From Candidatus Omnitrophota bacterium (GTDB lineage Bacteria > Omnitrophota > Gorgyraeia > Zapsychrales > Fredricksoniimonadaceae): 35,642 nucleotides of DNA. Positions 1,372 through 35,642 of this stretch are shown here, piece after piece. The stretch lies in NCBI GenBank assembly GCA_031386565.1, contig JANNCL010000267.1, forward strand, positions 1 to 35,642, given 5' to 3'. Position 1 is the first letter of the stretch, and every line of letters starts with the position of its first letter. The translations under genes were made by a program, and so were the position numbers. A model generated the notes under the pieces. That model saw only the letters and a program-made list of their open reading frames with translations, had not been told where the DNA came from and made no database searches.

Positions 1372-2841
1372 TTAGCGGTAACTGATCTTATTTTTTAAGT
1401 CTGGCTGTACATTCGCTTCGAATTTCAATTTGGTGATGAACGCGCCGATCTTTTCATTGCGTTTTTGGGCGCTGACCATGTTCTTGAAATCTTCCTTGTC
1501 CATATCGAATTTCTTTTCATCAATGGCTTCTTTGCTGCTTAAATAAGCGATCGCCGGCCCTTGGCTGGTCTCGATCACGCCGCTTAATTTATTGGCATCA
1601 TTGATGGAGTAGCTGTCCTGCTGGAATTCCGCGATGATGCCTGGCGCATTGATATATTCGCCGCGGGCAAATGATGTTGTCTCATCAAGCTTCAGGCTGA
1701 GTTCTGTGGCAATTGTCTTGAAGTCTTTGGTCTTTAAACCCTCTTTGATGGTGTTAAGCGTTGTTTCGGCTTTGGCTTTTGCAGCGGCATAGCCTTTATC
1801 ATTAAGGGCGGCATCTTTTACTTTCGCGCTGATGCTAGCAAATTCAGGGATGCCGCTTGCTTTCTTTTCTTTGATCTTCACGATCTGCCAGCCGTCCGGT
1901 GCTTCCATCGGGCTTGTGACCTCGCCTGTTTTTAAGGCAAAGATCTTATCGACGAATTCCGGTGACCAGGCGAAGGTAAGTAAGGGTTGTTCTTGGGCAA
2001 AAAAGCCGCTTTCTTTAAGGGCTTGCTGATGCTTGGCCGCGATGGCCGCAAAGTCTGCTTTGGGTGTTAATTCATGCGCGATGGCAACCGCGGTATCTTT
2101 GATGGCTTGTTTCTGTTTAGCATCTGCTTTTTCAGGATACAAAATATGCACATACTGCACATTCACCATGGGCGGTTCCCGGAAGGATTCTTTATGTTGT
2201 GCGAAGAATTTTGTGACGTCGTCGTCCGTAATAGTGGCGTCTTTGGAAAAATCGGCAGGCGTAAAAAGCACGTAGCTTAATTTTATCTTTTCATTGCGTT
2301 TAATATATTCCTGTTTTAGCTCTGCATCGGTAAAAGTGATATTGCCACCGACTTGATCAAGCAATTTACGGACGATGATGGAACGTCTGGCGCCTGCTTC
2401 GAAATCTTTGACCTTGCGGTCGAATATCCCCTGGGATTGGACGATATTCTCATAAATACTCTGGTCGAATTTACCGGCGCTTTGGAAGAAGGGCAATTGC
2501 GCGATATAATCCACGACTTCTTTGTCGGTAGCCGTGATATTACGTTTTTGAGCTTCGCGGCTGAGGATAATGCGGGTCCAAGCTTCACGTTCTAAGTCCA
2601 GTTGCTGTCCCATCTTAAAGAAACGGTCGCCATAGGAGATGATGGCTTGATCGCGGCTGTCTAAATAGGCGCGTTCAAACTCACGCAGCGGGACGGATTT
2701 TCCATACACTTTGCCAGCGGTGTTGATATTATTATCCAGGCGGTAGGCGGTCCCAAAGACCCCGAACGATAAAATATCAATGATCGCGACAGCCCATAAA
2801 ATTTTACGAGATACCCCTTTGTGGCGCAGAATGCTTAGCAT
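1372..2841 (-). CDS. ppiD: PpiD-like membrane-anchored periplasmic chaperone / parvulin-type PPIase
   Basis: N-terminal TM anchor (ILWAVAIIDILSFGVFG), a SurA-N-like region, then a degenerate parvulin-like region (PPMVNVQYVHIL...GWQIVKI). Length and architecture fit PpiD. Confidence 0.7.
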   Translation of the reverse strand: MLSILRHKGVSRKILWAVAIIDILSFGVFGTAYRLDNNINTAGKVYGKSVPLREFERAYLDSRDQAIISYGDRFFKMGQQLDLEREAWTRIILSREAQKRNITATDKEVVDYIAQLPFFQSAGKFDQSIYENIVQSQGIFDRKVKDFEAGARRSIIVRKLLDQVGGNITFTDAELKQEYIKRNEKIKLSYVLFTPADFSKDATITDDDVTKFFAQHKESFREPPMVNVQYVHILYPEKADAKQKQAIKDTAVAIAHELTPKADFAAIAAKHQQALKESGFFAQEQPLLTFAWSPEFVDKIFALKTGEVTSPMEAPDGWQIVKIKEKKASGIPEFASISAKVKDAALNDKGYAAAKAKAETTLNTIKEGLKTKDFKTIATELSLKLDETTSFARGEYINAPGIIAEFQQDSYSINDANKLSGVIETSQGPAIAYLSSKEAIDEKKFDMDKEDFKNMVSAQKRNEKIGAFITKLKFEANVQPDLKNKISYR

Positions 2842-2953: not shown

Positions 2954-5900
2954 ATGCTTCGGAAGCTAGGGTGCCTCTTTTTAACTTTTTTACTATTGCC
3001 ATTTTCCCAACTACAAGCGGATCAAATAGTTCTGCCTGTCCCCGGAACCATGGTACGGCTAAGCCCTGCCTATGAGCCTCCGTTATTAAAAGGTATTAAG
3101 GTCCATCCTGAGAATCCGTTTCGTTTCGAATTCGTTTTGGATCGTGGCGATCAAAAATCTACCGTAGGGGCGGATCGTGATCCGCCCTTTTTAAAAGAAG
3201 AATCCAAAAAATTGATCAAATATTTCCTAGCCGCCTTAACCACCCCCGAAAAAGATCTCTGGGTCAACTTAAGCCCCTACGAAAAAGACCGCATCGTGCC
3301 GGAGAGTTTTGGCCAGACTGAGATGGGCCGCGACCTTTTAGCGCAAGACTATATTTTAAAGCAAATTACGGCAAGTTTGGTTTATCCTGAAGGGGATATT
3401 GGTAAAAGGTTTTGGAAAAAGGTATATGAGTCAGCCGGGAATAAAAATGTTCCTGTTAATACGTTCAATAAAGTATGGATCATGCCTGATAAGGCGGAGG
3501 TGTATGAGAATACAAAGACCGGCACGGCGTATATTGTGCGGTCCAGTCTAAAAGTATTGACTGAGCAAGACTATCTTGCCACCAACAAAAACACAACCGT
3601 AGGGGCCGATCTTGTGTCGGCCCGCCATGCCGGGCGGACACAAGGTCCGCCCCTACGAAATACCGATAATTCCAAGATCATACGTGACCTCGTCATCCCA
3701 GAATTAACCAAAGAAATAAACCAAGGCCAAAACTTCGCCCAATTACGTCAAGTTTACAACAGCCTGATACTTGCCACCTGGTACAAAAAGAAGATCAAAG
3801 ACAGCATCCTCTCACAAGTATATGCCGATAAGAACAAGATCAAAGGCACAGAATACGATCAAAGCATTATTTCCCCTCCCCTTGTGGGAGGGGCCAGGGG
3901 AGGGGTACGATCCCAAGGACAAAAAGACGAGTCCCCCCTCCCTAACCCTCCCCACGATGGGGGAGGGAAGAATGACGTCGAAGCCATCTACGCCCGCTAT
4001 TTACAAGCCTTCAAAAAAGGCGCCTACAATTATATCAAAGATACTGACTTGCCTAACGGCCGGACAGTACCTACGAAATATTTCTCCGGCGGGGCGCGAT
4101 TTGATATGGCGATGATGACGACAACGGAAGAGTTAAGTGATCTACATCTTAGCCAAGCGGTGATCGTTCAGGCAAATATGGAACAAGCCATTTTTAAGGA
4201 ACCTGATGCTGCCATGTCGCATGACGAATCAATGCATAAATTACTTCTTGAGGCTATGTTATGGTATATGAACAGAGATCCTGAGCTGTCTCAACAAATG
4301 GTGGTTGCTCATCATGAGGAAGATCTTGTAAGAAAGTTTTTTCTTGGCAGAAAGGTTTTAAATGTTGCGCCGGAAGAAATTTCTTTTTCGGATATTCTAT
4401 TGGAGCAGAATATCATGACGGATATGAGGCAAAAAGGTATCGATGCAAGGGCTCTAGCTCCCGTAAACAAGCATCCACTTTGGGAAAAAGAAAGTTTCTA
4501 TCAAGGAGTGGTGGAAGATATGCATATGATCAATGCTGACACATTTGATGATATTGTCATTGCTAGATTATTTGATCCTGATTATTGGGAAACTACTGTA
4601 GGGAAGCAATTAGGCCAGACGGTAGAACAAAGAAGGGCTCTTTATCCCAGGATCGCAAAAGAATTAAAACGGGTACTTAGAGATAAAGGCAGGCTTTTTA
4701 TGCTTTCTATGGACGGCAATCCGTATTTATTCGAAGCTTTAAGGCACGAAGGGTTTAAGGTTTTTTCTTTAAAGTTAGATAAGAACAATCAGTTATTTGG
4801 CACGCTTTTAATTAACGACAAAACCATTATAGAATACGGAAATGGTGTTGGAAGAACAGACTTCGGCAGTAATCAAGCCATGCTTTCGCTTGCGGACAGT
4901 ATGGCATGGGGGGATGCGAAGGAAGATGCGGGGGTATATTTCAGGCTTAAGGCATTTTTGGATAAGGATGATCTTAAAGATCTGCAGCAATATGATCCGC
5001 AACAGCGCGCGCAATTGATCGCGCTTTGGTTGAAGGTGCGTTGGGCGAAAGCATTTCCTACGGATCATTGGCGATTATTAGAATCCGTCAGAAGCATCAT
5101 CGTAAATTATTTGTTAAAGAATACGTTATTGACGCACAGGGAACGCAATGAGGGGGCGATAGGGGAATTCGCTAAGTTTGGGATGCCCCGCTTTCAAGCG
5201 GAGATGCTGCTGCATTGGGCAGAGGATGTATTTAATGGCAAGTCGGATGCTCGATTCACGTTCCATCAATGGGCGGTGGCGTCCCATGTAGGGGATGCGC
5301 AAAATGCCGTGGATAAATTTGGTGTCATTGTTGGGCTTAATGAAGAGCAGAAAAATGAATTGATCCAGTATCTTTTAGGACAGAGTGAAAGGCTGTACCG
5401 TGATGCCGAAGAACAACAAAAGTTCGACGCTATTTGGCTGGCAGTCAAGTACAAATGGTCCGAGGATTCTTTTAAGCGGTTCATGAATGAACATATGATG
5501 ACGCATATCGATCCCGAAGCGCGTCAGATCTTAAGGCAGGAGGCTTTGGAAGATCTCCCGATGCAGGGACGGGAGAGGTTATATACCCGTCAACAGATCG
5601 CGGACATGGCCAATGATGCGGGCGTGCTTTGGAATCGTTGGGAGTGGATTAAGGCCAGGCAGCCTGCGATCGAGCGGATGGCGGCGCCGTTTAATGGTGT
5701 TGAAGCAAGAAAACGGGCCATTATTTTTGGAAGATTGCTGGAGCTTAATCTAGCACAACAGAAAGACGTAGAGAGTTATCTTTTAGGCGCCCTCGAAAGG
5801 GTATTTGTTGACAATACAGAGCAGCAAAAATTTGATGCTGTTTGGCTGGCAGTGAAATATGGATGGACAGGAGAATCGCTGGTTCGGTTCGTTCAAAATA

Positions 5901-8900
5901 AAATAATTTTCCACATCGATCCAAAGGCTGCGGGATTCTTAAGGAGGGAAGTCCCAGATCACCTTAGGATCTTCCGTTCTGAGAAGTCTGGCGGCTTCTC
6001 TGATGGGGAGATCTTCGCTATGGCTCATGATGCCGGGTTACTTTATGAAACGCGTTGGGAGGTAAAGCATATTAATCAGGAGTCTCAACACGTGATGCAG
6101 GTCATTGAAGAGAAGCTGGCCAAATCTGTCCCGTTAACCCGCGCGCCTAAGATCGAACCGGAGGTCACACAAAGGATCCAGCAGGCCGAGCAAAAGGCCG
6201 ACCTGTTTTTCGAAGATTTGCATGCGTTAAGCACCCTGCCTCCGGCGCAGTTCGTAGAAGAGTTATTGCAGAAGATGGTTATCCAAGAGCCTAATTTTGA
6301 GCGTATCCTTTCAGGGCAGGCGGCCTTGCCGGATAATTGGCAGGACGATGTTGCTGCGTTCGCGAAACGTCTGGATCAACGCTGGCAAGCGTGGGGTGCA
6401 GATGGGATATCCATGCAGCAAAGATTTGGCTCGATCTATTCAGTGATGGCCTTGAGGATCGGAGCCGATTTATTTGCTACTTACGAGCAGGCGGTATTGA
6501 CACACGCATGGTTTTTTGCTTTTGTTTCAGCTGCTCCTCCGGAGGCTATGGTTGAAGCATTGCACATGATCACATCCTCGCATATCATCCATTTAAGGCT
6601 TCATGGGATGCATCCATATTCAGATAAGTTGTTTGAAAGGCCAGTGAGTTTAGATGTTGATACTCTTTATGGAAGAAAGGGCAGGAGTGTTGGTGTTTTA
6701 AGAAATTACTTGGAAGCATTCAAGCCCCTAAGGTCAAAGGTATTTGACCAACGTTTTGAATATGATTTTTTATGGGGTCTGGTGATGGGATCAGACCCAT
6801 CCCCACTTGATCCCAGATATGCGGAGAATCATTCTAACGATCAGGTTAATGTTCTTAAGCAGGGCAAGTCTGATGATGAATTCTTTAGGAATTCATTAAG
6901 AGAAGCTGTCGAACAGCTCGACATTGATCCGCGAGAGTTTGAATTGTTGTTATTGGAAGCGTTAGCTATTTCAGATCAAGAATGGGAAGCGATGGGCTAT
7001 GTTTCTCCTTATAAAATTAAGATGGGACATGAAATCAGTGATTTTTACATTGCTGCCGCGCAGAAAAAACATGTTCTACCCACTGGGCCTGTATCCTTAA
7101 TGAGCCCAGATCCTGGATTGCTTGAATTCAGAGGGGTCTTTTTAAAGAACTACAATAAGGTTTTCGAAGGAAGGGAAAGTTTAAGGGACTACTACATAGA
7201 ATCCTGGTCCGCGCTGTACCCCAGTCTGGCGGGAATAAAAGATCGTGCTCAGACTGCCGACGATAAGGCGGTTTCTGAGAGTTCATGGTTGGATCAGATC
7301 ATTAAGGATCCCAAGATTGACAAGATCAGTGAAGGTGTTCATGTGCGTCGGATCACTTTTTTGAATACGGCTTTGGTTATGGAAATATGGTTATCCGATA
7401 CACGGCAACATGGGATAGACGCTGTTGTTGTCAATGAAGGATTCCCATCTGCTAAAAAGAAAGAATTCAGGAATATCCCTAGACGCTTGGTTTTTGACAA
7501 TAGCGCTGGTATTGAAAAGCGAAAAAGCATGGTGTATACGCTTATGGATTTCTTAGCCGGTGAAATTCTTGTGCAGCGCATCGCGGCCAATCACAAAGCT
7601 TCCAGAGAACTAGAGATCCAGCATAAGGATGAGTATTTGGATGAGAAAGTAAGTGCGGATCTTCAAGGACTTATTGGATTTGGGAAGTTTATTAAGACGA
7701 TTGTTTATATGATTTTTGGCAAAACAGGTTTAATGTACGAGAATCTTTTAAATACAAAATCGAGGTTTTTAAAAGCGGTTTTACGCTTAAATGATACGGA
7801 TTTTTTAAAACAGAAGCCGCAGCTGGGACGAACTTATCAGGTTGTATTTCGTGAGCAGTATTATGGCAAGATATCTATTTCGATGGATGATCGAGATCAG
7901 TTTTATGTTGTTTTGATAGAACAAATGTACGGTCGACCATTATGGAGGCGTATCCCCATAGCACAATATGATCATTTATCGGATATTATAAAAGTTACCC
8001 TTGATTCTATAGAGCAAGAGATCGGGCAGACAGCGGTTCCAGGACAGGGGGTAGATCGGGCTATGGTACAAGGTCAGGGGGCCGACCGTATTAGAAGAGG
8101 ATTGTTGGTGAGTATTGCTTCATCACTATCGTTTTCTCCCCAAGCGGCTGTGATCGAATTTCCTACATATGATGAAGAAAGGGTTACGGGGCAAGTTCCC
8201 GGTTATGTACAAAGCGTGATCGGCAGATGGTTCCCCAGGTATAAAATTATCCTTACACAGGGTGGGGATCAGATTTTATGGGATGAAAGAACCAAAACGC
8301 TGCGTTTTAACAGGGAGCGTTTTGAGGGAATGAACGATGATCAGCTATTTGCGGCCTTGGCTGCAGATACGGCATATTATGGAGTGAAACTTTTTGCTAA
8401 AGATAATGACGCGCTGATGCAAATGGGTTTTATAGGTGCGGAGACGATCGCGCGGGCAAAGAAAATGCTTGTTTTTGACCATCTAGTGTCAGATGGCAAG
8501 ATACCTGTTACTTCAACAATGCAGGAGGAGCAGCTGCTTAGCAAGGCTTTTCTGGCCTTGATCGAACAGCGTCATAAGCTGGTGGATTTTGAAGGGTACA
8601 GCCTTGAAAAGGCCACGCTTGAAAAACCGCTTGTGGATAATAACGGTTTTTTGCAGCAGAGGGTTGTAAGCATTGCTCTGGAAAACTTGAATACGCGCTT
8701 AAAGAAACGCGTTTTAGCAAAGGTTGTCATGGATCTTCAGAGCGGAAAGAATAAAGTTACTTTCATGCCGATGGAAGATAGTGCTCAAATCAGTTCCATT
8801 GACTCAAAGCGCGGGGGTATTGATCTTACTAGTGACAAGATGGATTTAAAGCTTAAAAGCGATGGTGGGGCTATCCGGTTCAAGATGGATCCGGCTCAAT

Positions 8901-9019
8901 TAAAAGCGTTGCAAGAAGCTCCGGGTTTGATCCCTTCTATTGTTAACATGCGCACTTTGCCCGCAGGACAGGAAGGCATCAACATCTTAAAGTTGTTTTT
9001 AGGGGTTCAGGCTCCTTAG
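2954..9019 (+). CDS. Giant secreted modular protein, paralog 1 (2021 aa): conserved N-module + orphan ~1500-aa cargo + conserved C-terminal tail; function unknown
   Basis: Uninterrupted 6066-nt ORF with signal peptide MLRKLGCLFLTFLLLPFSQLQA. The N-module aligns with 11889-14906 (45/58 identical over KYFLAALT..YPE) and with 35400-35642 (36/39 identical over LPVPGTMV..LD+G). The tail GGIDLTSDKMDLKLK..GLIPSIV aligns with the paralog 2 tail. Confidence 0.9.
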   Translation: MLRKLGCLFLTFLLLPFSQLQADQIVLPVPGTMVRLSPAYEPPLLKGIKVHPENPFRFEFVLDRGDQKSTVGADRDPPFLKEESKKLIKYFLAALTTPEKDLWVNLSPYEKDRIVPESFGQTEMGRDLLAQDYILKQITASLVYPEGDIGKRFWKKVYESAGNKNVPVNTFNKVWIMPDKAEVYENTKTGTAYIVRSSLKVLTEQDYLATNKNTTVGADLVSARHAGRTQGPPLRNTDNSKIIRDLVIPELTKEINQGQNFAQLRQVYNSLILATWYKKKIKDSILSQVYADKNKIKGTEYDQSIISPPLVGGARGGVRSQGQKDESPLPNPPHDGGGKNDVEAIYARYLQAFKKGAYNYIKDTDLPNGRTVPTKYFSGGARFDMAMMTTTEELSDLHLSQAVIVQANMEQAIFKEPDAAMSHDESMHKLLLEAMLWYMNRDPELSQQMVVAHHEEDLVRKFFLGRKVLNVAPEEISFSDILLEQNIMTDMRQKGIDARALAPVNKHPLWEKESFYQGVVEDMHMINADTFDDIVIARLFDPDYWETTVGKQLGQTVEQRRALYPRIAKELKRVLRDKGRLFMLSMDGNPYLFEALRHEGFKVFSLKLDKNNQLFGTLLINDKTIIEYGNGVGRTDFGSNQAMLSLADSMAWGDAKEDAGVYFRLKAFLDKDDLKDLQQYDPQQRAQLIALWLKVRWAKAFPTDHWRLLESVRSIIVNYLLKNTLLTHRERNEGAIGEFAKFGMPRFQAEMLLHWAEDVFNGKSDARFTFHQWAVASHVGDAQNAVDKFGVIVGLNEEQKNELIQYLLGQSERLYRDAEEQQKFDAIWLAVKYKWSEDSFKRFMNEHMMTHIDPEARQILRQEALEDLPMQGRERLYTRQQIADMANDAGVLWNRWEWIKARQPAIERMAAPFNGVEARKRAIIFGRLLELNLAQQKDVESYLLGALERVFVDNTEQQKFDAVWLAVKYGWTGESLVRFVQNKIIFHIDPKAAGFLRREVPDHLRIFRSEKSGGFSDGEIFAMAHDAGLLYETRWEVKHINQESQHVMQVIEEKLAKSVPLTRAPKIEPEVTQRIQQAEQKADLFFEDLHALSTLPPAQFVEELLQKMVIQEPNFERILSGQAALPDNWQDDVAAFAKRLDQRWQAWGADGISMQQRFGSIYSVMALRIGADLFATYEQAVLTHAWFFAFVSAAPPEAMVEALHMITSSHIIHLRLHGMHPYSDKLFERPVSLDVDTLYGRKGRSVGVLRNYLEAFKPLRSKVFDQRFEYDFLWGLVMGSDPSPLDPRYAENHSNDQVNVLKQGKSDDEFFRNSLREAVEQLDIDPREFELLLLEALAISDQEWEAMGYVSPYKIKMGHEISDFYIAAAQKKHVLPTGPVSLMSPDPGLLEFRGVFLKNYNKVFEGRESLRDYYIESWSALYPSLAGIKDRAQTADDKAVSESSWLDQIIKDPKIDKISEGVHVRRITFLNTALVMEIWLSDTRQHGIDAVVVNEGFPSAKKKEFRNIPRRLVFDNSAGIEKRKSMVYTLMDFLAGEILVQRIAANHKASRELEIQHKDEYLDEKVSADLQGLIGFGKFIKTIVYMIFGKTGLMYENLLNTKSRFLKAVLRLNDTDFLKQKPQLGRTYQVVFREQYYGKISISMDDRDQFYVVLIEQMYGRPLWRRIPIAQYDHLSDIIKVTLDSIEQEIGQTAVPGQGVDRAMVQGQGADRIRRGLLVSIASSLSFSPQAAVIEFPTYDEERVTGQVPGYVQSVIGRWFPRYKIILTQGGDQILWDERTKTLRFNRERFEGMNDDQLFAALAADTAYYGVKLFAKDNDALMQMGFIGAETIARAKKMLVFDHLVSDGKIPVTSTMQEEQLLSKAFLALIEQRHKLVDFEGYSLEKATLEKPLVDNNGFLQQRVVSIALENLNTRLKKRVLAKVVMDLQSGKNKVTFMPMEDSAQISSIDSKRGGIDLTSDKMDLKLKSDGGAIRFKMDPAQLKALQEAPGLIPSIVNMRTLPAGQEGINILKLFLGVQAP
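3164..3187 (+). repeat. Single REP-like unit (GTAG + 8-bp hairpin) inside the paralog 1 CDS
   Basis: GTAG GGGCGGAT CGTG ATCCGCCC: perfect 8-bp stem with a 4-nt loop. It is translated as TVGADRDPP. Confidence 0.7.
3599..3656 (+). repeat. 58-nt REPIN-like inverted doublet (two hairpins) read in frame inside the paralog 1 N-module
   Basis: GTAG GGGCCGAT CTTGT GTCGGCCC GCCATGCC GGGCGGAC ACAAG GTCCGCCC CTAC. The outer ends are GTAG/CTAC and the two loops are complementary. It encodes VGADLVSARHAGRTQGPPL. Confidence 0.85.
3873..3967 (+). repeat. C-tract/G-tract triple-hairpin cluster inserted in frame in paralog 1 only
   Basis: Three arm pairs: CCCCTCCC (3873-3880) / GGGAGGGG (3886-3893) with loop CTTGT; GGGAGGGG (3898-3905) / CCCCTCCC (3935-3942); CCCTCCCC (3946-3953) / GGGGAGGG (3960-3967). 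It encodes SPPLVGGARGGVRSQGQKDESPLPNPPHDGGG. Paralog 2 is 24 codons shorter here. Confidence 0.8.
5336..6070 (+). repeat. Internal tandem duplication (~136-aa unit, 2 copies) within the paralog 1 cargo
   Basis: Unit 1 starts at LNEEQKNELIQYLLG (5336) and unit 2 at LNLAQQKDVESYLLG (5744). 22/37 residues are identical over EQQKFDA[IV]WLAVKY..HIDP.A, and both units end with DAG[VL]L...RWE[WV]K. Confidence 0.8.
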
Positions 9020-9078
9020 GGACATAATCTTGACTATTAATAATGGTCATGATAAGCTTGGTTGAGGAGGATCTATAT

Positions 9079-9306
9079 ATGATCATTGCCGCGGGAAAAT
9101 TTAAAGCACAATGTTTAAAGATCATGGATGAAGTGCACAATCATCATCGGGAAGTGATTGTTACGAAATATGGAAAGCCTTTTGTCAAATTGACGGGGAT
9201 AAAATCAACGCCTAAAAAATCGTTATTTGGTTTAATGAAGGGGTCTGTGACCATCCATGAGGATATCATAGGGCCGTCCGGGGATAAGTGGGATGCCGAA
9301 AAGTAA
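9079..9306 (+). CDS. Phd/YefM-family antitoxin (VapB-like)
   Basis: MIIAAGKFKAQCLKIMDEVHNHHREVIVTKYGKPFVKL is a typical Phd/YefM N-terminus. GAGGAGG lies 7-8 nt upstream of ATG 9079, so the ORF-track start at 9043 is unlikely. It overlaps the PIN gene by 14 nt. Confidence 0.8.
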   Translation: MIIAAGKFKAQCLKIMDEVHNHHREVIVTKYGKPFVKLTGIKSTPKKSLFGLMKGSVTIHEDIIGPSGDKWDAEK

Positions 9307-9730
9307 TGGATCACAAGCGAAAACATTGCTTTTAGATACGCATGTTTGGCTTTGGCTGATCAATGATAGCGATCAGCTTAAGGGGGCCCGAATAGTCGGC
9401 CACATTGAAGAGTACGCGCAACACAACGGATTAAGGGTTTCCGCGATCTCTGTGTGGGAGATCGGGATGCTGGTTGCGAAGAAAAAGATCACGCTCTCTA
9501 AAGATGTTTTTTTATGGGTAAAAGAGTCGCTTAAAGAAAACGGGTTGACTGTTGAGCCTTTGAGCAATGAGATCTTATTAGAAAGCAATCTTTTAGATGT
9601 TCACGGCGATCCTGCGGACCGGATGATAATAGCTACAGCAAAATTAACGCACGCGGCGATAATGACCGCAGATAAAGCCATCATTCAGTTCTGCCGTAAG
9701 CATGATATGGAAGTTGTGCCGGTAAGCTAA
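9293..9730 (+). CDS. vapC: PIN-domain toxin VapC
   Basis: LLLDTHVWLWL (first acidic Asp), SVWEIGML, DPADRMIIATA and MTADKAI match the PIN acidic residues. It overlaps the upstream antitoxin. Confidence 0.85.
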   Translation: MPKSNGSQAKTLLLDTHVWLWLINDSDQLKGARIVGHIEEYAQHNGLRVSAISVWEIGMLVAKKKITLSKDVFLWVKESLKENGLTVEPLSNEILLESNLLDVHGDPADRMIIATAKLTHAAIMTADKAIIQFCRKHDMEVVPVS

Positions 9731-11888: not shown

Positions 11889-14800
11889 ATGCGGAAAACG
11901 ATATTTAGCCTAGTTTTGGTCAGCTTCTTGATCAGTAACATCAATATTCCTTTGCTTAGGGCAGGGGAAGTTGTTGTGCCCATCATGCCCAAGCCGGGCA
12001 CCATGGTTTCTTTAAGTCCTATCTTTACCCCGGCTTATCTTAAAGGGATTGTTATTCATCCCGACAATGCCCTGCAATTCGACTTTTTGATCAACAAAGG
12101 CGATGGAAATTTAAACACTCAAGAAAAGAATCAGGAATATACTAAACTAGTCAAATACTTCCTGGCGGCACTCACCGTCCCGGATCAAGACCAATGGGTG
12201 AACTTAAGCCCGTATGAAAAAGACCGCATTATTAAAGATGACTTCGGCAAGACCGAAATGGGCCGCGACCTTTTGGGTCAAGATTATTTGTTAAAGCAGA
12301 TCACCTCATCTTTAATGTATCCCGAATCTGGTTTAGGCAAAAATTTCTGGGATAAAGTCTATGCCAAAGCCCAAGAAGAATTTGGCAACACCAATATCCC
12401 CGTCAACACATTCAACAAAGTCTGGATCGTGCCAGATCAAGCCATTGTTTATGAAAGCGGCAATATTGCGTATGTAGGGCGCAGTCATTTGAAAGTGATG
12501 TTGGAAGAAGATTATCTTGCCATCAACAAAAATAAATCCGTAGGGGAGGACCTTGTGTCCTCCCGCCATGCCGGGCCGATACAAGATCGGCCCCTACAAA
12601 ATACCGATCAAGCACAAATAATCCGTGAACTCATCCTCCCCGAATTAGAAAAAGAAGTCAACCAAGGCAAAAATTTCGCCCAATTACGCCAAGTTTTTAG
12701 CGGCATGATCCTAGCCACTTGGTATAAAAAAGCATTGAAAGAATCTTTGTTAGCCAAAATTTACGCAGATAAAAATAAAACTAAAGGAACGGGATATACA
12801 AAAAGCATTCTCAACCGAAGCCAACCTGGGAAACAACCAAACGACATCGAGCTTGTGTACCAGCAATACCTCCAAGCCTTTAAGAAAGGCGTATACAACT
12901 ATATTAAAGAGGACACAGACAAATACACACATCAACCCATTCCCAGAAAATATTTTGCGGGTGGGGTGAATGGCATTCCAAAAAATGTTCTAGAAGTACG
13001 CCAAGGCACAAGCCCGGCAATGACGGCGGAAGTAAACACCCTTGATGCCGCGCAAGTTAGTTTAGATAGTAAAAAAGCAGATGCGGCGATGAATATTCAA
13101 GAAATACAATCTTACAGCCAATGGGTAGTTCGGATATTGACGACCGGTGTACCGTTGACATTTACAACTGTTTCAGCTCAGGCAGCACAATTTCAAGAAT
13201 TTGTATCAACATATCCTTGGTTAGCAACGGGTTCTGCAATAGGGCTGACGGCTGCAACATGGTTTGGGTATTATTTGTGGAGTATGTTTCATACGTTAAA
13301 GGGAATGGGGCGTGCTTATGACCAGAAAATAGTGAGCAAGGAACAATTTCGTGCGTGGCTAGATGAATATCTTCCCACACAAAGCGACGCAATATTGATT
13401 GGCTTATTGAACCACCGACAGATGGCAGTTCGGGAAAAATCTGCGGAAATATTAGTGCGTTTGAAAACTAGAAGGGCTTCTCAAGAAGAGGTGATCCAAG
13501 CATTGTTGGGAAGACTTGGCGATTATGATCCTGTTCATCAGAGGGCATTATTAGGATTGAAGGAATTAGGAGTAAGCCAAGAACTCCTATTGAGCGAATA
13601 TCATGTCATTGTCTGGAATGCAGATAACTCAACATTTATGCGCTTGGGAGGAGACTCCGAACGCTCCTCTTTTGAGTCTGTTAACAAAGCCATCAAATTT
13701 TTTAGTGAAATAGGTGAACAAGGCAGGGATGAATTAGTTGCTATAGGTAAAAATCATCCAAGTGAAGGTGTTCGAAAGCGAGCGGGAGAAATTGTATCCA
13801 GGATAGTATGGGATTATGGGACATGGGGTTCAACTTATACTTTGGATGATGTCGAAATGGCAATAAAAATGTTAGGAAGAATGGGGTCGGTAGGGTTGTA
13901 TGAATTATCCAGAATAAAAGGGGAAGATCTTGACCGCAGGGTTATTGAAATGGCGAAAAATCAAATAGACGCGGCGATGGGGGAGAATTTGAGTTATAAG
14001 GGCAAGGACTTTGAAATCAGCTCGCAAGGACTATTGATTGGCACAATATATTCAATTTATTTTCTTTTACGTGAAAGGGCTATTGCTTCGAAGCATCCAA
14101 CGATTGCATTTGACCTAGATGGAACGATTGCTTTTTGGAACGGGAGTGAATATCTGATAAGACCCGGAATCGAAGAACAAATCCGTAAGCTTAAACAAAG
14201 GGGTTTTCGTATAGTTTTATGGACGTCAGCACCAAGAGAGCATGTTCGTGTTAACTTTATTGAAAAGAATTCTGCAATTGCTAATTTTTTTGATTTAGTT
14301 ATTTCCAGAGAAAGTTTCAGCCCTTTAATAGAAAATGAGCAAGCAATGAAAGGCGTTTATGCAAGATTTATGAAGATTCCAGTAAGTGATTTTATGGAAA
14401 GAATTCATAGAACATATTTTGCGACTAACAATGATTGGGGATTTAAGGATTTTTTGTTGCTGGGATACAAGTTCTTAGTTGATGATACACCGCTCAAGAT
14501 TTTAAAAGGTCAGCCTTATCCTCTAATCCAAGAGTACAAGATGAGGTACATGCAGGCGGGATTTTTCTACACTAATTCTCAAGGAGTGAGTCTGGGTGAC
14601 GATTATCCGATAGGAAATCTAGCTGATACGATTCAAGAAAAAATTGAGCAAGCTGACAAATCATTTGGTGGTGGTACTGATGTTGATGTGGCTGGAAATG
14701 TATTAGATGCGGCGATGAAAGATCCCGGCGGTATTGACATGAACTCCGCTAATTTGGATTTGCAGATTAAGCGTGATGGTAAAGGGGTGCCTTTGCCGCT

Positions 14801-14906
14801 TTCTCAGCAAGATATGGCGCTGTTGTCTCGTATTGAAGGATTTGTTCCGCGTATCATTGCAATCAAACCTGCCTCTTCATTGCCGATCTTTAGTAAAATA
14901 CAGTAA
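11889..14906 (+). CDS. Secreted modular protein, paralog 2 (1005 aa): conserved N-module + TM segment + HEAT-like repeats + HAD-superfamily phosphatase domain + conserved tail
   Basis: Signal peptide, then an N-module homologous to paralog 1. Hydrophobic helix WLATGSAIGLTAATWFGYYLW. HEAT-like units (HRQMAVREKSAEILVRL, HPSEGVRKRAGEIVSRI). HAD motifs: FDLDGT (14109-14126), LWTSA, VDDTP (~14478-14492). Tail: GGIDMNSANLDLQIK..GFVPRII. Confidence 0.9.
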   Translation: MRKTIFSLVLVSFLISNINIPLLRAGEVVVPIMPKPGTMVSLSPIFTPAYLKGIVIHPDNALQFDFLINKGDGNLNTQEKNQEYTKLVKYFLAALTVPDQDQWVNLSPYEKDRIIKDDFGKTEMGRDLLGQDYLLKQITSSLMYPESGLGKNFWDKVYAKAQEEFGNTNIPVNTFNKVWIVPDQAIVYESGNIAYVGRSHLKVMLEEDYLAINKNKSVGEDLVSSRHAGPIQDRPLQNTDQAQIIRELILPELEKEVNQGKNFAQLRQVFSGMILATWYKKALKESLLAKIYADKNKTKGTGYTKSILNRSQPGKQPNDIELVYQQYLQAFKKGVYNYIKEDTDKYTHQPIPRKYFAGGVNGIPKNVLEVRQGTSPAMTAEVNTLDAAQVSLDSKKADAAMNIQEIQSYSQWVVRILTTGVPLTFTTVSAQAAQFQEFVSTYPWLATGSAIGLTAATWFGYYLWSMFHTLKGMGRAYDQKIVSKEQFRAWLDEYLPTQSDAILIGLLNHRQMAVREKSAEILVRLKTRRASQEEVIQALLGRLGDYDPVHQRALLGLKELGVSQELLLSEYHVIVWNADNSTFMRLGGDSERSSFESVNKAIKFFSEIGEQGRDELVAIGKNHPSEGVRKRAGEIVSRIVWDYGTWGSTYTLDDVEMAIKMLGRMGSVGLYELSRIKGEDLDRRVIEMAKNQIDAAMGENLSYKGKDFEISSQGLLIGTIYSIYFLLRERAIASKHPTIAFDLDGTIAFWNGSEYLIRPGIEEQIRKLKQRGFRIVLWTSAPREHVRVNFIEKNSAIANFFDLVISRESFSPLIENEQAMKGVYARFMKIPVSDFMERIHRTYFATNNDWGFKDFLLLGYKFLVDDTPLKILKGQPYPLIQEYKMRYMQAGFFYTNSQGVSLGDDYPIGNLADTIQEKIEQADKSFGGGTDVDVAGNVLDAAMKDPGGIDMNSANLDLQIKRDGKGVPLPLSQQDMALLSRIEGFVPRIIAIKPASSLPIFSKIQ
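12540..12597 (+). repeat. 58-nt REPIN-like inverted doublet read in frame inside the paralog 2 N-module (same site as 3599-3656)
   Basis: GTAG GGGAGGAC CTTGT GTCCTCCC GCCATGCC GGGCCGAT ACAAG ATCGGCCC CTAC. Both stems are perfect. It encodes VGEDLVSSRHAGPIQDRPL. Confidence 0.85.
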
Positions 14907-17493: not shown

Positions 17494-17567
17494 TGCCCGG
17501 TGGTGTAAAGGTAGCACACGAGAATTTGGATCTCGTTGTCAAGGTTCGAATCCTTGCTGGGCAACCA
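17494..17567 (+). tRNA. tRNA-Gln (anticodon UUG), CCA encoded
   Basis: Manual cloverleaf. Acceptor TGCCCGG/CTGGGCA. D-arm GTGT-AAAGGTA-GCAC. Anticodon arm CGAGA-ATTTGGA-TCTCG (TTG at positions 34-36). 4-nt variable loop. T-arm CAAGG-TTCGAAT-CCTTG. Discriminator A, then CCA. Confidence 0.9.
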
Positions 17568-28304: not shown

Positions 28305-28391
28305 AATAGTTTAAAATTGATTGTTTGATTTCATTCTTCTTAACATCCCTAAAAAATTCGTTAATCTAGGTATAAATATTTTTTTTGTCAA

Positions 28392-28420
28392 TTGACATGA
28401 CAAACCCCAGCCCTTATAAT
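28392..28420 (+). promoter_or_regulatory. Consensus sigma70 promoter directly abutting the bamA start codon
   Basis: TTGACA (28392-28397), exactly 17 nt, TATAAT (28415-28420). ATG 28427 lies 6 nt after the -10 box and there is no SD. Confidence 0.6.
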
Positions 28421-28426
28421 TCCACC

Positions 28427-30904
28427 ATGCCTAAAAAATCACTCACATACCTATTTATTTTATTGTCCATTTTAATTCTAACTGACGCTAAAACCTCATT
28501 GGCGCAAGAGGTTGCGGCGGAGGCAACGGCGACGCAGGATAATGCGGCCGCAGTGCCGGCGGATACAACTCCGACACAAGATAACGCTCAAAAACCTGCC
28601 TCGGATATGCCGACCATGGAGCTTAAACAGGAAGCCCCATCAGCAGCGGTAAGCATGCCTTCCGAAACAGCACCGATGGCTAAAACAGTCAAGTCGATCG
28701 ATATCATCGGCAATAAATCAATTGGTATCACACAAATTCTAGCTAAGATCAAAACCCGTGTGGGGCAAGATTATGTGGAGAATATCGTCAGCGATGATTT
28801 AAAACGTCTATATAACACCGGTCATTTCTCTGATGTGCAGATCGATCACGAAGATCTTGACGGCGGTTATAAGGTGATCGTGAAACTGAAGGAAAAACCG
28901 ATCATCGAGGAAGTAACGTTCTCGAAATTGAAGTATTACAATAAAAAATTCATCGAAAGCAAGATCAAGACCCGTAAAGACAAGTTCCTGGATAATAAGA
29001 CGTTAAAAGATGATATTAATATCATCGAAGATCTTTATAAGAAAAAGGGTTTGACGCAGGTGAAAGTGGATGTGGAAACGTTCATGGATGATACCACCAA
29101 TAAAGCCAGTTTGCATTTTATCATCCGCGAAGGATTTCGCATGAAGATCAAGCGCATTAATGTCTACGGAAATACTGCGTACCGTGACAACAAGATCATA
29201 AAGACCATGAAATCCCGTCCGGCTTGGTTGTTCAATTCGGGGTTCTTGAAGGAAGAAGACCTTGAAGAGGACATGACCAAGATCCAGGCATTCTATGAAC
29301 AAAATGGTTATATCGATGCCAAAGCGTCATATAAGGTCGATTCGTTGTATAAGGGGTTGGTCAACGTTGATGTGACGGTCGAGGAAGGCAAACGCTATTA
29401 CGTGGGTGTTTTGGCGATGGAAGGTAATGCTATTCTTTCAGAGCTGGATATCAAATCAAAGATCAAGAATTTACGCGAAGGTAATGTTTTTAGCCGGGAG
29501 AAATTACAGGATGATGTCAGCGCGGTACGCGATGCATATTTCGATCATGGGTATATCTCCGCATCCGTGGTCGATGCGACATCCTTTAATGCTGAATCCG
29601 GCCGTGTGGATGTAAAGCTTACCATTAAGGAAGGTAAATTAGCCTATATTGATAAGATCAAGATACAGGGGAATGCGAATACCCGTGATATTGTTATCCG
29701 CCGGGAATTACGTATGTACCCTGGGGATCAATTCGATGGGGCGAAATTACGTAAATCCAAGGAACGCTTGCGTAATTTAGGCTATTTTGAAGATGTGGGT
29801 TATGATATCGAAGACACCGATCAAGAAGACCAAAAAGACTTAGTCGTTCAAGTGAAAGAAGCCAAAACGGGTAGTTTCTCTTTCGGCGGCGGTTATAGTA
29901 CGGTTGATAAATTGGTCGGCTTTATCGAATTGGAACAGAAGAATTTCGATATCGCTAACTGGCCATCCTTTACCGGCGGCGGACAGGATTTACGTATTCG
30001 CGGCGAGATCGGTTCTTCCCGTCAGAACGCGGAATTGAGTTTTACCGAACCTTGGGTGTTTGATTATCCTGTTTCAGCTGGGTTCGACCTGTTCGTGACC
30101 AGTTTAACGAAGGATAGTTCTACCGGTTATGCCTATGATGAGCGTCGTACCGGCGGAGATCTTCGTTTAGGGAAGAGTTTCAACGATAATTTCAATATGG
30201 GCAGTTATTATCGCTTAGAGCAGATCAAGATCAATAACGTTGCTTCCAATGTTTCTGCTGATCTGGCCGCGGAAGAAGGGACCAATGTGGTCAGTTCCAT
30301 CGGCGTGTCTAGCACGAATGATTACCGTGATAGTCCTTTGGCTACGACGAAGGGATTTACTTGGCATAATAGCGCTGATCTGGCCGGCGGTGTTCTTGGC
30401 GGCGATAAGGATTTTTACCGATTGCAAACAGAGGGCAGTTATTATGCTCCTTTTAAATTCAATGAGCTGGTGACCGTCCTTGAAGTTAGTGGAAAAACAG
30501 GCATGGTCAAAGCATACAATAAAACAGCTCGCGTGCCGATCTTTGAACGTTACTTTGCTGGTGGTGCCAATACTATCCGTGGGTACAATGAACGTAAAGT
30601 AGGTCCGCTCGATAGGAATACCAATGATCCTATCGGGGGTGAAGCGATCTTGGTCGGTAGTATGGAATATACCGTTCCGATCATCGAGGTGCTAAAAGCG
30701 GCGGTTTTCTTTGATGCCGGTAACGTGTGGTCGAAGGCCAGCGATTATGCCAGCGGCGGAATCAAGTCCGGAACAGGTTTGGGCCTGCGGGTCAAAACCC
30801 CGATCGGTCCTCTAAAGCTTGATTATGGTATTCCTCTAAGCAAAGAACCAGGTGAAAATAAGAAGAGCGGCAAGTTCTATTTCAGTGTAAGCCGAGGGTT
30901 TTAA
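28427..30904 (+). CDS. bamA: Outer membrane protein assembly factor BamA (Omp85), with Ala/Thr/Pro/Gln-rich linker after the signal peptide
   Basis: Signal peptide MPKKSLTYLFILLSILILTDAKTSLA, POTRA-like repeats (IKSIDIIGN.., IKRINVYGN.., IDKIKIQGN..), and a C-terminal barrel ending ..GKFYFSVSRGF (terminal aromatic residue). Confidence 0.9.
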   Translation: MPKKSLTYLFILLSILILTDAKTSLAQEVAAEATATQDNAAAVPADTTPTQDNAQKPASDMPTMELKQEAPSAAVSMPSETAPMAKTVKSIDIIGNKSIGITQILAKIKTRVGQDYVENIVSDDLKRLYNTGHFSDVQIDHEDLDGGYKVIVKLKEKPIIEEVTFSKLKYYNKKFIESKIKTRKDKFLDNKTLKDDINIIEDLYKKKGLTQVKVDVETFMDDTTNKASLHFIIREGFRMKIKRINVYGNTAYRDNKIIKTMKSRPAWLFNSGFLKEEDLEEDMTKIQAFYEQNGYIDAKASYKVDSLYKGLVNVDVTVEEGKRYYVGVLAMEGNAILSELDIKSKIKNLREGNVFSREKLQDDVSAVRDAYFDHGYISASVVDATSFNAESGRVDVKLTIKEGKLAYIDKIKIQGNANTRDIVIRRELRMYPGDQFDGAKLRKSKERLRNLGYFEDVGYDIEDTDQEDQKDLVVQVKEAKTGSFSFGGGYSTVDKLVGFIELEQKNFDIANWPSFTGGGQDLRIRGEIGSSRQNAELSFTEPWVFDYPVSAGFDLFVTSLTKDSSTGYAYDERRTGGDLRLGKSFNDNFNMGSYYRLEQIKINNVASNVSADLAAEEGTNVVSSIGVSSTNDYRDSPLATTKGFTWHNSADLAGGVLGGDKDFYRLQTEGSYYAPFKFNELVTVLEVSGKTGMVKAYNKTARVPIFERYFAGGANTIRGYNERKVGPLDRNTNDPIGGEAILVGSMEYTVPIIEVLKAAVFFDAGNVWSKASDYASGGIKSGTGLGLRVKTPIGPLKLDYGIPLSKEPGENKKSGKFYFSVSRGF

Positions 30905-30948
30905 ACTTTTTAAGATTTATTTGGGTTAATCAAACAAGGGAGGATAGT

Positions 30949-31452
30949 ATGAAGTTCGCACGTATTCTTAGCATCATGGTTTTAGGAGTCATGTTATCGT
31001 CATCCGCATTTGCTAAAGAATTGAAGGTCGGTTATGTGGACTTAAGCCGCCTGTTCGATAATTACCAAAAAACAAAAGAGTTTGATGCGGCTTTGCAAAA
31101 ACAAGGGGAGTCATTTACGAAAGACCGTGATGGGATGATCGCCAAGATCCGGGATGCTCAAGGAAAATTGGCTTTACTCAAGGAAGAAGAGAAGAATAAA
31201 TTGGGCGAAAGCATCGAGAAGCAAAAGACGGATCTGATCGAATACGATAAACAAAAACGCACGGAATTGGCCAAGCAACGCGATGAAAAAGTGCGCGAGA
31301 TCCTTTTGGAGATCGAAAAGATCGTTAGCGATCTGGCTAAAAAAGAAGGTTATGATTATATCCTGAATGACCGCGTTCTGGTTTACGGTGATCAAACACA
31401 GAATATCACGGACAGGGTGCTCAAGATATTAAACGATAGTTATAAGAAATAA
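30949..31452 (+). CDS. skp: OmpH/Skp periplasmic chaperone
   Basis: Signal peptide, KVGYVDLSRLFDNYQKTKE, and a coiled-coil Lys/Glu-rich body. It holds the conserved position between bamA and lpxD. Confidence 0.85.
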   Translation: MKFARILSIMVLGVMLSSSAFAKELKVGYVDLSRLFDNYQKTKEFDAALQKQGESFTKDRDGMIAKIRDAQGKLALLKEEEKNKLGESIEKQKTDLIEYDKQKRTELAKQRDEKVREILLEIEKIVSDLAKKEGYDYILNDRVLVYGDQTQNITDRVLKILNDSYKK

Positions 31453-31454
31453 TA

Positions 31455-32489
31455 ATGACGAACATAACCGTTGCCGAAATTGCCAGGTTTACGAATGGTG
31501 AGCTCGTCGGTGATGGGAGTATCGAGATCCAGGCCTGCTCTGGGATATATGAAGCCAAGAACGGTCAGATAACATTCGTGATCGGTGATGCTTACAAAGA
31601 GCAGGCGTTAAAAAGTGAAGCTTCGGCAGTGATCATTCCCCGACAGATGTCCTTGCCGGGGAAAACTGTTATTAGGGTCGATAATCCTTCGCACGCGTTC
31701 ACGCGGCTTTTAAAATATTTTTTAAAAGACCGTCCCTCCGTGCATCCTGTCGGCATTCACCCTACTGCTATAGTCGCGTCCACCGCACGGATAGGAGCGC
31801 GTGTGGCCATCGGTCCGTATGTTGTCATTGACAATGATGCTGTTATTGGGGATGATACGGTCATTTATGCGCATGGGTATGTCGGAGCTAAGGTGCATGT
31901 TGGCAAAGAATGCGTGCTCTATGCGCATGTGAGCATACGCGAGGAAGTGATCATTGGTGACCGGGTTATCATACAAAACGGGGCGGTTATAGGCAGCGAT
32001 GGTTACGGATATGTGATGGTCGATGGCAAACATGAGAAGATCCCGCAAATTGGTACAGTGATCATTGAAGATGATGTTGAGATCGGGGCCAATACCGCTA
32101 TTGACCGGGCGCGTTTTGAAAAGACAATTATCGGAGAAGGTACCAAGATCGATAATCTGGTCCATATCGCACACAATGTGATCACCGGCAAGCATTGCTT
32201 GATCATAGCGCAGGCCGGTGTTTCAGGGAGTGCTAGATTAGGTAATTATGTCATATTAGCCGGTCAAGTCGGGGTGGTAGGTCACTTAACCATCGGCGAC
32301 GGGGCGATCGTGACCGCGCAATCGGGGGTGAGCAAATCTCTTAAGGCGGGAGAGCAGGTATTTGGTTCGCCGGCACAGCCGATCAAAAAAGCGTTCATCA
32401 CCAATGCGCATATCCAGCGTCTTGATCATTATGCGAACACTATCAAAGATCTAAAGAAACGCATTGAAGTATTAGAAAATAAACAATGA
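31455..32489 (+). CDS. lpxD: UDP-3-O-acylglucosamine N-acyltransferase
   Basis: The N-terminal domain is followed by hexapeptide repeats (IHPTAIV..ARIGARVAIGPYVVI..) and a C-terminal helix. Confidence 0.95.
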   Translation: MTNITVAEIARFTNGELVGDGSIEIQACSGIYEAKNGQITFVIGDAYKEQALKSEASAVIIPRQMSLPGKTVIRVDNPSHAFTRLLKYFLKDRPSVHPVGIHPTAIVASTARIGARVAIGPYVVIDNDAVIGDDTVIYAHGYVGAKVHVGKECVLYAHVSIREEVIIGDRVIIQNGAVIGSDGYGYVMVDGKHEKIPQIGTVIIEDDVEIGANTAIDRARFEKTIIGEGTKIDNLVHIAHNVITGKHCLIIAQAGVSGSARLGNYVILAGQVGVVGHLTIGDGAIVTAQSGVSKSLKAGEQVFGSPAQPIKKAFITNAHIQRLDHYANTIKDLKKRIEVLENKQ

Positions 32490-33772: not shown

Positions 33773-33774
33773 AT

Positions 33775-34560
33775 ATGATGACAACTCAACAAATACATCC
33801 AACAGCGATCATCAGCGATGATGTCACCTTAGGTAAGAATGTCGTGATCGGACCTTATACGATCATCAATGGCCCGGTCATCCTAGGAGACGATGTTTCC
33901 ATCGGAGCGCACTGTGTCATTGAGGGCTGGACAACCATCGGCCGCGGCTGTCAGCTTTATACAGGTGCGGTGATCGGCAGCCCTCCGCAAGATAAAAAGC
34001 ATGATCGCAAGGATAAGGTGTTCCTGAAGATAGGCGATGATAATATTTTTCGTGAATATGTGACGGTTAATCCAGGGACCATCGACGGTGGCGGAGAAAC
34101 CACGATCGGTAATGGGAATTTATTCATGGCCTGTTCTCATGTGGCGCATGACTGCCATGTGGGGAGTCATTGCATCATGGCCAATTATGTGGGATTGTCC
34201 GGCCACGTGACCATCGAAGACCGTGCGGTCATCGGCGGGCTTTCCGGTGTCCATCAGCATGCGCGTGTTGGTTTTTTGTCCATTATCGGCGGATGTTCTA
34301 AAGTCAATCAGGATGTGCCGCCTTACTGCATGGTGGATGGTAACCCAGCTACGTTGCGTACGCTAAATGTGGTCGGTTTAAAACGTGCTAATATTTCCTC
34401 TCAAACAAGTTTGGCGTTGCGCCGAACGATAAAGATCCTTTTCAATTCCGGTTTGGCGCGCAGCAATGCCTTAACGCAGGTCAAAGAGCAAATGGGCACT
34501 ATCCCGGAAGTTAAACGCCTGATCGATTTCGTTGAGAGTTCTAAGCGTGGGATCTCCTAA
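33775..34560 (+). CDS. lpxA: Acyl-ACP--UDP-GlcNAc O-acyltransferase
   Basis: IHPTAIISDDVTLGKNVVIGPYTII hexapeptide repeats, HVAHDC, GLKRA. Confidence 0.95.
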   Translation: MMTTQQIHPTAIISDDVTLGKNVVIGPYTIINGPVILGDDVSIGAHCVIEGWTTIGRGCQLYTGAVIGSPPQDKKHDRKDKVFLKIGDDNIFREYVTVNPGTIDGGGETTIGNGNLFMACSHVAHDCHVGSHCIMANYVGLSGHVTIEDRAVIGGLSGVHQHARVGFLSIIGGCSKVNQDVPPYCMVDGNPATLRTLNVVGLKRANISSQTSLALRRTIKILFNSGLARSNALTQVKEQMGTIPEVKRLIDFVESSKRGIS

Positions 34561-35399: not shown

Positions 35400-35642
35400 A
35401 TGCCTCGAAGATTTTTAAGTTTAATCCTATCTATATGTTTATTGCCTTTGCCGCAAGTCTATGCAGCAGAAGGACTTTTAAGCTTGCCTGTGCCTGGGAC
35501 TATGGTACGGCTAAGCCCTGCTTATGAACCGCCACTATTAAAAGGCATTAAAGTTCATCCTGATAATCCGTTTCGTTTCGAGTTCATTTTAGATAAAGGA
35601 AACGAAACGCCCGCCGTAGCCAAAGGCGAAAGCACTTTGGCG
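35400..35642 (+). CDS. Secreted modular protein, paralog 3 (first 81 codons only; runs off the window; absent from the ORF track)
   Basis: My translation from ATG 35400 is MPRRFLSLILSICLLPLPQVYAAEGLLSLPVPGTMVRLSPAYEPPLLKGIKVHPDNPFRFEFILDKGNETPAVAKGESTLA. 36/39 residues are identical to paralog 1 after the signal peptide. The nucleotide differences I checked are mostly synonymous. Confidence 0.85.
   Translation, partial: MPRRFLSLILSICLLPLPQVYAAEGLLSLPVPGTMVRLSPAYEPPLLKGIKVHPDNPFRFEFILDKGNETPAVAKGESTLA

Follow-up and report, generated by a model that had tools for sequence, protein, structure and literature searches.

Is the short C-terminal tail common to two large, putatively exported proteins of an uncultured bacterium a sorting tag in its own right, or is it one part of a larger arrangement? 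The question is raised by a stretch of 35,642 nt, contig JANNCL010000267.1 of the Candidatus Omnitrophota assembly GCA_031386565.1 (the window), in which two open reading frames (ORFs), ORF A and ORF B, end in similar modules beginning with the residues GGID. A preliminary description of this DNA had taken the module for a sorting, secretion or anchoring signal on otherwise unrelated cargos. We tentatively favour another answer, namely that the tail is the C-terminal half of a two-part frame, the other half being a conserved N-terminal domain (N-domain), in an Omnitrophota family of Sec-exported modular proteins, and that it is not an autonomous tag. The features of the window on which this proposal is based are:

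2954-9019 (+): ORF A, 2021 aa, with a tail of subtype 2 (divergent)
2954-3019 (+): signal-peptide-like leader of ORF A, MLRKLGCLFLTFLLLPFSQLQA, putatively cut before DQ (from the sequence and the family-wide heuristic)
3020-4102 (+): conserved N-domain of ORF A, last residues YFSGG (from identity with ORF B and invariant columns)
4088-4102 (+): KYFSGG at the end of the N-domain of ORF A
8813-9016 (+): C-terminal tail of ORF A, GGIDLTSDKMDLKLKSDGGAIRFKMDPAQLKALQEAPGLIPSIVNMRTLPAGQEGINILKLFLGVQAP, the last 68 codons, with the pattern GGIDL..IxF.MDPAQL..LQ.APG[LF].P.I
8813-8824 (+): GGID at the start of the tail of ORF A
11889-14906 (+): ORF B, 1005 aa, with a tail of subtype 1 (canonical)
11889-11963 (+): signal-peptide-like leader of ORF B, MRKTIFSLVLVSFLISNINIPLLRA, putatively cut before GE
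11964-12965 (+): conserved N-domain of ORF B, last residues YFAGG (from identity with ORF A and the AlphaFold confidence, pLDDT ~70-92)
12951-12965 (+): YFAGG at the end of the N-domain of ORF B
13041-13070 (+): conserved strand LDAAQVSLDS of ORF B, residues 385-394 (AlphaFold; consensus D.A.V.L)
14727-14903 (+): C-terminal tail of ORF B, GGIDMNSANLDLQIKRDGKGVPLPLSQQDMALLSRIEGFVPRIIAIKPASSLPIFSKIQ, the last 59 codons
14727-14738 (+): GGID at the start of the tail of ORF B
35400-35642 (+): third family member, 5' part only, with leader MPRRFLSLILSICLLPLPQVYA and N-domain start AEGLLSLPVPGTMVRLSP, running off the window

Translation of the window places both tails where the preliminary description had put them, and they read as it quoted them. 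In two-sequence BLASTP the tails are 30% identical over 47 residues (E 3e-5) and the N-terminal ~380 residues share 53% identity (E 1e-122), whereas the middles show no significant similarity, either in BLASTP or in the family-wide comparison of middles. The earlier statement that the residues preceding the tails are unrelated is therefore correct for the middles, which do not align, but not for the first ~380 residues; in the same way, the cargos are unrelated as far as their middles go, but one N-terminal domain is common to both proteins. Judged from these alignments, ORF A and ORF B are paralogues that have both ends in common and differ in the middle. In each of them the leader, an N-domain ending in YF[SA]GG and a GGID tail lie in one frame. 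The third copy has its leader and the start of its N-domain before the window ends; this start is close to that of ORF A, but with many synonymous differences.

How widespread is the tail? A profile made from the two window tails matched 59 database proteins. A second profile of 60 sequences, searched exhaustively against 1.84 billion representatives (clusters at 50% identity), matched 4,665 representatives at E<=1e-3, 2,054 of them even at E<=1e-10, and the motif is thus not confined to the two proteins from which it was described. Among the best 150 of the 4,665 representatives the match lies at the extreme C-terminus in every case, 0-25 residues from the end, and in 80 genome loci the tail ends 0-21 residues before the stop codon, except in two where the distance is 33 and 43 residues. 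The canonical consensus is GGIDLNSANLxLQIKRDGKGVPLPLxQQDMAQLxxIxGFxPxIIxIxPAxxLP. An external profile of 58 tails, from which the window sequences had been left out, gave 108 bits with the tail of ORF B and 24 bits with that of ORF A, in the latter case exactly at the C-terminus (domain E 2.3e-9 in a two-sequence search, corresponding to about 1 at whole-library scale). The ORF A tail represents a divergent subtype 2, GGIDL...IxF.[LM]DPAQL..LQNAPGF.PVII.I.P...L..FLG, with relatives at 42-48% identity, e.g. GGIDLTPANMNLQTQNAGEGIKFHMDPAQLAQLQNAPGFVPVIISIKPMTDLALFLGL.

When one genome per species (GTDB) was scanned, 250 sites were confirmed, the best 80 of which were inspected. The metagenome-assembled genomes (MAGs) that hold these 80 all bear the label Candidatus Omnitrophota/Omnitrophica or, if third-party, 'uncultured Planctomycetales'. 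The family is restricted to Omnitrophota in the genomes sampled. Several copies per genome are found (among these best 80, at least 8 loci in assembly CAZACW01), often in tandem on the same strand, as with the three copies in the window. A phage origin was considered and rejected, there being no relative on IMG/VR viral contigs. Neither Pfam nor NCBIfam has a model for the tail or the N-domain, HMM searches with the end modules retrieved no PDB sequence below E 0.2, and no account of N-domain, tail or the D-x-A-M motif described below was found in the literature searched, recent Omnitrophota genome studies included. An exact look-up of ORF B in public assemblies gave no record.

The tail comes with one particular N-domain. 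Extending the reading frames around the 80 genome matches gave proteins of 600 to >3,400 aa, whose N-termini resemble Sec signal peptides followed by [LM]P.PG.MV.LSP. The N-domain is present in 127 of the 145 tail proteins with >=550 aa, and the tail in 83 of the 85 proteins retrieved through the N-domain. Seven N-domain ORFs of the loci set were missed by the canonical tail profile; six of these have divergent tails with the same pattern, and the seventh (locus L080, 10358-12709) has no recognisable tail. As to the 18 tail proteins that lack the N-domain, 6 are visibly cut at a contig end, and for the two that were studied in detail, P0145 and P0180, an N-domain ORF precedes the gene in the same frame, separated from it by a single TAA; the remaining ten were not individually inspected. 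The in-frame TAA (at 2739-2741 of locus L081 and at 5863-5865 of L082, with the same gene in L083) interrupts frames that are otherwise open and come from different samples, and the genes concerned could be pseudogenes, contain sequencing errors or be read through.

Intact tail proteins without the N-domain were accordingly rejected for the two cases studied, others being cut by contig ends. Free-standing tail genes were rejected also, since the three small ORFs consisting of a tail only derive from long genes, either as fragments at a contig edge or as what follows the final frameshift. A carrier outside the context of signal peptide and N-domain, which would have spoken against the preliminary description, was thus not found among the apparent exceptions examined (the two N-domain-less proteins and the three tail-only ORFs). 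The architecture of the family is fixed: a signal peptide, an N-domain of ~350 aa ending in YF[SA]GG, a short strand, a variable middle, and GGID with a tail of ~55 aa.

A signal-peptide-like leader with an A-x-A site was called in 150 of 161 testable members, by a heuristic (preceding K/R, a hydrophobic core and an A-x-A-type site) rather than by SignalP. Of 183 members, 154 have no transmembrane-like segment between N-domain and tail, for which reason a type I membrane protein with a cytoplasmic middle, an idea suggested by a hydrophobic helix in ORF B, was rejected. Since BamA (Omp85, with five POTRA domains) is encoded in the window, the organism has an outer membrane and thus a diderm envelope.

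Between the conserved ends the middle varies in length from 190 to >2,500 aa, and only 110 of 19,306 protein pairs (0.6%) have a middle segment in common at E<1e-8. When 51 relatives were compared with Pfam (E<=1e-4), most middles had no match; those that did contained Response_reg (5 of the 51), DnaJ, cNMP-binding, HATPase_c, PP2C, PrmA, HEAT, PP-binding or LysM domains. Domains of the receiver, DnaJ, cNMP-binding, HATPase, PP2C, HAD and HEAT types are normally cytoplasmic and are unexpected behind export leaders.

The borders of the middle are marked in two ways. All 85-118 aligned members have an invariant GG dipeptide on either side: the N-domain closes with KYF[SA]GG and the tail opens with GGID. 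The flanking dipeptides recall double-glycine processing sites, although no peptidase was identified. The second mark is D-x-A-M, which occurs 571 times in 216 family proteins versus 25 times in shuffled sequences (23-fold), and 18 times versus 20 expected, i.e. without enrichment, in 472 neighbouring non-family ORFs. It is found just downstream of the N-domain, between modules and, at the other end, 5-30 residues ahead of GGID, and where two middles are similar the similarity begins <=10 residues from a D-x-A-M in 35% of cases, as compared with 8% at random points. Possible roles of the motif are those of cleavage site, docking strand and structural cap. In the window it is found at:

4103-4114 (+): DMAM of ORF A
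4205-4216 (+): D418AAM of ORF A (border motif)
8054-8065 (+): DRAM of ORF A
13080-13091 (+): D398AAM of ORF B (border motif)
13968-13979 (+): D694AAM of ORF B
14706-14717 (+): D940AAM of ORF B, 7 residues upstream of GGID

Can the tail fold by itself? AlphaFold2 was run on full-length ORF B with a family alignment of 85 rows and on the tail alone with one of 34 rows. In the full-length model the N-domain, with two beta-hairpins and long helices, has a predicted local distance difference test score (pLDDT) of ~70-92, and the tail, in the same range, forms a strand (957-962), a helix (976-981), a second strand (985-994) and a second helix (999-1004). The strand 385-394 lies between disordered, low-confidence linkers; the block 381-390 averages pLDDT 93 and is the most confident block of 10 residues in mature ORF B, only the signal-peptide helix being as high. 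The middle of ORF B is poorly modelled. In isolation the tail has no strands, a pLDDT of 68.7 and a predicted template modelling score (pTM) of 0.26, so that no autonomous fold is predicted. Because the strands form in the full-length model and not in the tail alone, the models suggest a docking of the tail to the N-terminal module. A Foldseek search of PDB and BFVD found nothing at E<=1e-3, with query-normalised TM-scores <=0.10.

We propose that the tail would most likely add its two beta-strands to the N-terminal module. In this way the two conserved ends would be joined into one unit, with the variable middle protruding from it, and the shared function of all members after export by Sec probably resides in this unit. 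One envelope partner might recognise the unit, leading to retention at the surface or to onward secretion; alternatively, the middle, often with signalling or enzyme domains of the cytoplasmic type, might be delivered to another cell. A fixed frame with two ends and nearly unique middles is what a general display or delivery system for diverse cargo would be expected to look like.

Several points speak against this proposal. The contact between tail and N-terminal module was deduced only from strand formation and confidence values, and the full-length and tail-alone predictions differed in alignment depth (85 vs 34 rows). In direct-coupling analysis, which was underpowered with 194 sequences (effective number 171), pairs between N-domain and tail were not enriched and made up 11 of the top 60 versus about a quarter by chance. 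The distances of N-domains and tails do correlate (Mantel r 0.44 vs a maximum of 0.26 in 500 permutations), but such co-divergence of the ends is predicted both by co-adaptation and by simple co-inheritance, the latter because non-homologous middles prevent recombination between the ends. The leaders were called heuristically. Finally, the neighbourhoods revealed no partner machinery: even the commonest neighbour cluster is present in only 8 of 81 loci, and no transporter or protease gene, for whose co-occurrence the preliminary description had suggested a test, recurs next to the family genes.

Against the two-part frame stands the idea that the tail alone is a signal for sorting, secretion or anchoring, recognised by a dedicated Omnitrophota machinery after Sec export and moving the protein across the outer membrane or attaching it there, with a separate role for the N-domain. 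We consider this rather unlikely, even though it would readily account for the strictly C-terminal position, the signal-peptide-like leaders, the thousands of carriers with unrelated middles, the several copies per genome (at least 8 loci in CAZACW01) and a diderm envelope with BamA. Known sorting domains occur on many architectures, whereas none of the apparent exceptions examined proved to be a tail protein lacking this one N-domain; the tail has no autonomous fold in the AlphaFold prediction; no transporter, sortase or protease recurs in the neighbourhood (8 of 81 loci for the top neighbour cluster); and no T9SS, PEP-CTERM, LPXTG or related model matched. Of the earlier interpretation there remains that the position fits a terminal signal or anchor, that the motif is found far beyond two proteins, and that the exceptions examined gave no carrier outside the export context. 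A generic transferable tag is less likely than the two-part frame, given that tail and N-domain are paired ~1:1, that no autonomous fold is predicted and that no linked machinery was found. It is improbable, in our opinion, that the tail is a processing element, i.e. that the members are precursors or polyproteins cleaved at GG, at D-x-A-M or at both, the tail serving as a pro-peptide or intramolecular chaperone that is removed upon release of the middle modules. The invariant GG at both borders of the variable region and the 23-fold enriched D-x-A-M coinciding with module borders (35% vs 8% at random) would be explained in this way, and C39 double-glycine peptidase domains have been reported, as has a proposed cleavage of giant Omnitrophota proteins (bioRxiv 10.1101/2023.11.21.568195). 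However, neither ORF A nor ORF B has a detectable peptidase domain, none is a consistent neighbour, and both GG and D-x-A-M could be purely structural (turns, strand starts).

A recombination scaffold, in which the conserved 5' and 3' ends would be homology arms for exchange or acquisition of middle cassettes among the often tandem paralogues, diversifying a surface repertoire as in antigenic-variation systems, has in our view little probability. Same-strand tandem arrays are seen in many loci, three copies being present in the window, and the middles between the conserved ends are extremely diverse. The conservation, however, is at the protein level, with the tails of ORF A and ORF B only 30% identical; the two closest N-domains of the window differ by many synonymous changes; and the invariant GG, W, Y and D point to a function of the protein. 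Chance similarity or a low-complexity artefact, for which only the 24 bits of the ORF A tail against the canonical profile could be cited, is already refuted by the 2,054 representatives at E<=1e-10, by the family of its own to which the ORF A subtype belongs and by the identical position in every protein. The readings as sorting signal, two-part frame, cleavage and cassette exchange are mutually compatible, and the last two are the lesser rivals.

The Omnitrophota, ultra-small and uncultured, are thought to live in dependence on other cells or as their predators. In a more speculative extension of the two-part frame, which we regard as unlikely though attractive, N-domain and tail would be a phylum-specific delivery frame that brings modules of the cytoplasmic type into or onto host or prey cells, GG and D-x-A-M serving to release them. 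If this were true, the frame would be a previously unrecognised effector-export system behind the episymbiotic or predatory lifestyle of Omnitrophota, and would handle hundreds of modules, such as receiver, DnaJ, kinase-like, phosphatase and methyltransferase domains.

Among the systems already known, the tail would by analogy work most like the C-terminal domain (CTD) of the type IX secretion system (T9SS) or like a dockerin, both being terminal modules on many exported passengers. The cargo proteins of T9SS likewise have a Sec signal peptide, a conserved C-terminal module of tens of residues and, per genome, many paralogues with unrelated passengers, and their hosts are diderm. However, the T9SS CTD is an autonomous beta-sandwich of ~70-100 aa that occurs on many N-terminal architectures, whereas the tail, with ~55 aa, comprises two strands and two short helices, in context only, and is tied to one N-domain. 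T9SS genomes carry PorU/PorV/Sov, whereas no PorU/PorV-type genes were seen beside the family genes (81 loci only), and the phylum differs, the best 80 tail loci being in Omnitrophota MAGs. The CTD models TIGR04183 (type A) and TIGR04131 (type B) gave no match in ORF A or ORF B (NCBIfam, E<=1), and CTD models are absent among the 25 most frequent of the 115 families in the 51 relatives. Cellulosomal dockerins are modules of ~60-70 aa, usually C-terminal, that are found on many exported proteins and dock onto a common partner; unlike the tail, which has no Pfam dockerin match, they contain a duplicated Ca-binding motif, fold alone and are not tied to one N-domain.

The other C-terminal signals differ more. 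PEP-CTERM, LPXTG and GlyGly-CTERM proteins end in a short motif, a hydrophobic transmembrane helix and a basic cluster; the tails have no hydrophobic stretch of 19 aa, variable polar ends and no NCBIfam match. RTX proteins, exported by the type I secretion system (T1SS), have no Sec leader and carry tandem GGxGxDxUx repeats, whereas the family has leaders (150 of 161), a single GG and no nonapeptide array, and ORF A and ORF B have no Pfam match to RTX. The outer-membrane beta-signal belongs to a barrel with an aromatic residue in the last position; AlphaFold2 predicts no beta-barrel for ORF B, and family members end in ...FSKIQ, ...GVQAP or longer polar extensions. The opinion of the preliminary description that the tail does not resemble known C-terminal signals (T1SS, T9SS CTD, PEP-CTERM, sortase, beta-signal) was thus borne out, and T9SS CTD, PEP-CTERM, LPXTG, RTX, beta-signal and dockerin were all rejected, there being no profile match and the anatomy being wrong.

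Two further systems resemble the family as a whole. MARTX toxins also have conserved ends around a mosaic of unrelated modules of the cytoplasmic type, with short recurrent motifs, as possible processing sites, at the borders, but they are secreted by T1SS without a Sec leader and have long arms of glycine-rich A/B/C repeats and a cysteine protease domain activated by inositol hexakisphosphate. Such arms or protease gave no Pfam or NCBIfam match in ORF A or ORF B, and none in the 51 relatives (Pfam E<=1e-4); the resemblance is one of architecture only, an analogy. Polymorphic toxins and modular exoproteins of the two-partner secretion (TPS)/CdiA type have a conserved N-terminal export or recognition domain followed by variable modules and belong to expanded, often tandem families; in those families, however, the C-terminal tip varies and there is no conserved C-terminal cap. 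Domain scans of ORF A and ORF B and the neighbours in 81 loci revealed neither a TPS domain nor an immunity gene or a TpsB partner.

The family is one of the largest in Omnitrophota, comprising at least 4,665 clusters at 50% identity, with several genes in each small genome, and YFSGG ... D-x-A-M ... GGID tail provides a simple sequence handle for listing the whole repertoire. The middle of ORF A contains an internal duplication, seen by eye at 5300-6100 of the window (aa ~790-1040), in which EQQKFDA[IV]WLAVKY.W...S..RF......HIDP.A occurs twice, and its residues 1131-1353 are 28% identical to the middle of the family member at locus L006, the sole relative of either window middle in the sample. 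In ORF B two weak matches, both below curated cut-offs, were obtained, a HAD-phosphatase-like module (listed below) and HEAT_2 (aa 501-557). An opposite-strand or RNA feature under the tails was rejected: opposite 8813-9016 there is no ORF of >=80 aa, a doubtful minus-strand ORF at 14877 overlaps the tail of ORF B by 27 nt only, and a tRNA gives the sole Rfam match. The window as a whole is chromosomal and carries housekeeping genes, HisG, IspE-like and GlmU-like (named from sequence only), DnaB and BamA among them, and also contains:

1372-2841 (-): PpiD/SurA-like periplasmic chaperone (SurA_N and rotamase), divergent, just upstream of ORF A
9043-9730 (+): toxin-antitoxin pair (PIN-domain toxin, Phd/YefM-type antitoxin) immediately following ORF A
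14100-14354 (+): weak HAD-phosphatase-like module in the variable middle of ORF B (Pfam/NCBIfam)
17494-17564 (+): tRNA gene
28385-35362 (+): BamA, then several same-strand ORFs, immediately upstream of the third family copy

The chaperone gene is not recurrent in the 81 loci; a Rotamase_2 protein has been described near giant Omnitrophota genes (bioRxiv 10.1101/2023.11.21.568195). An antitoxin/toxin pair similar to that downstream of ORF A adjoins a family gene on an unrelated contig (locus L082, 3875-4498).

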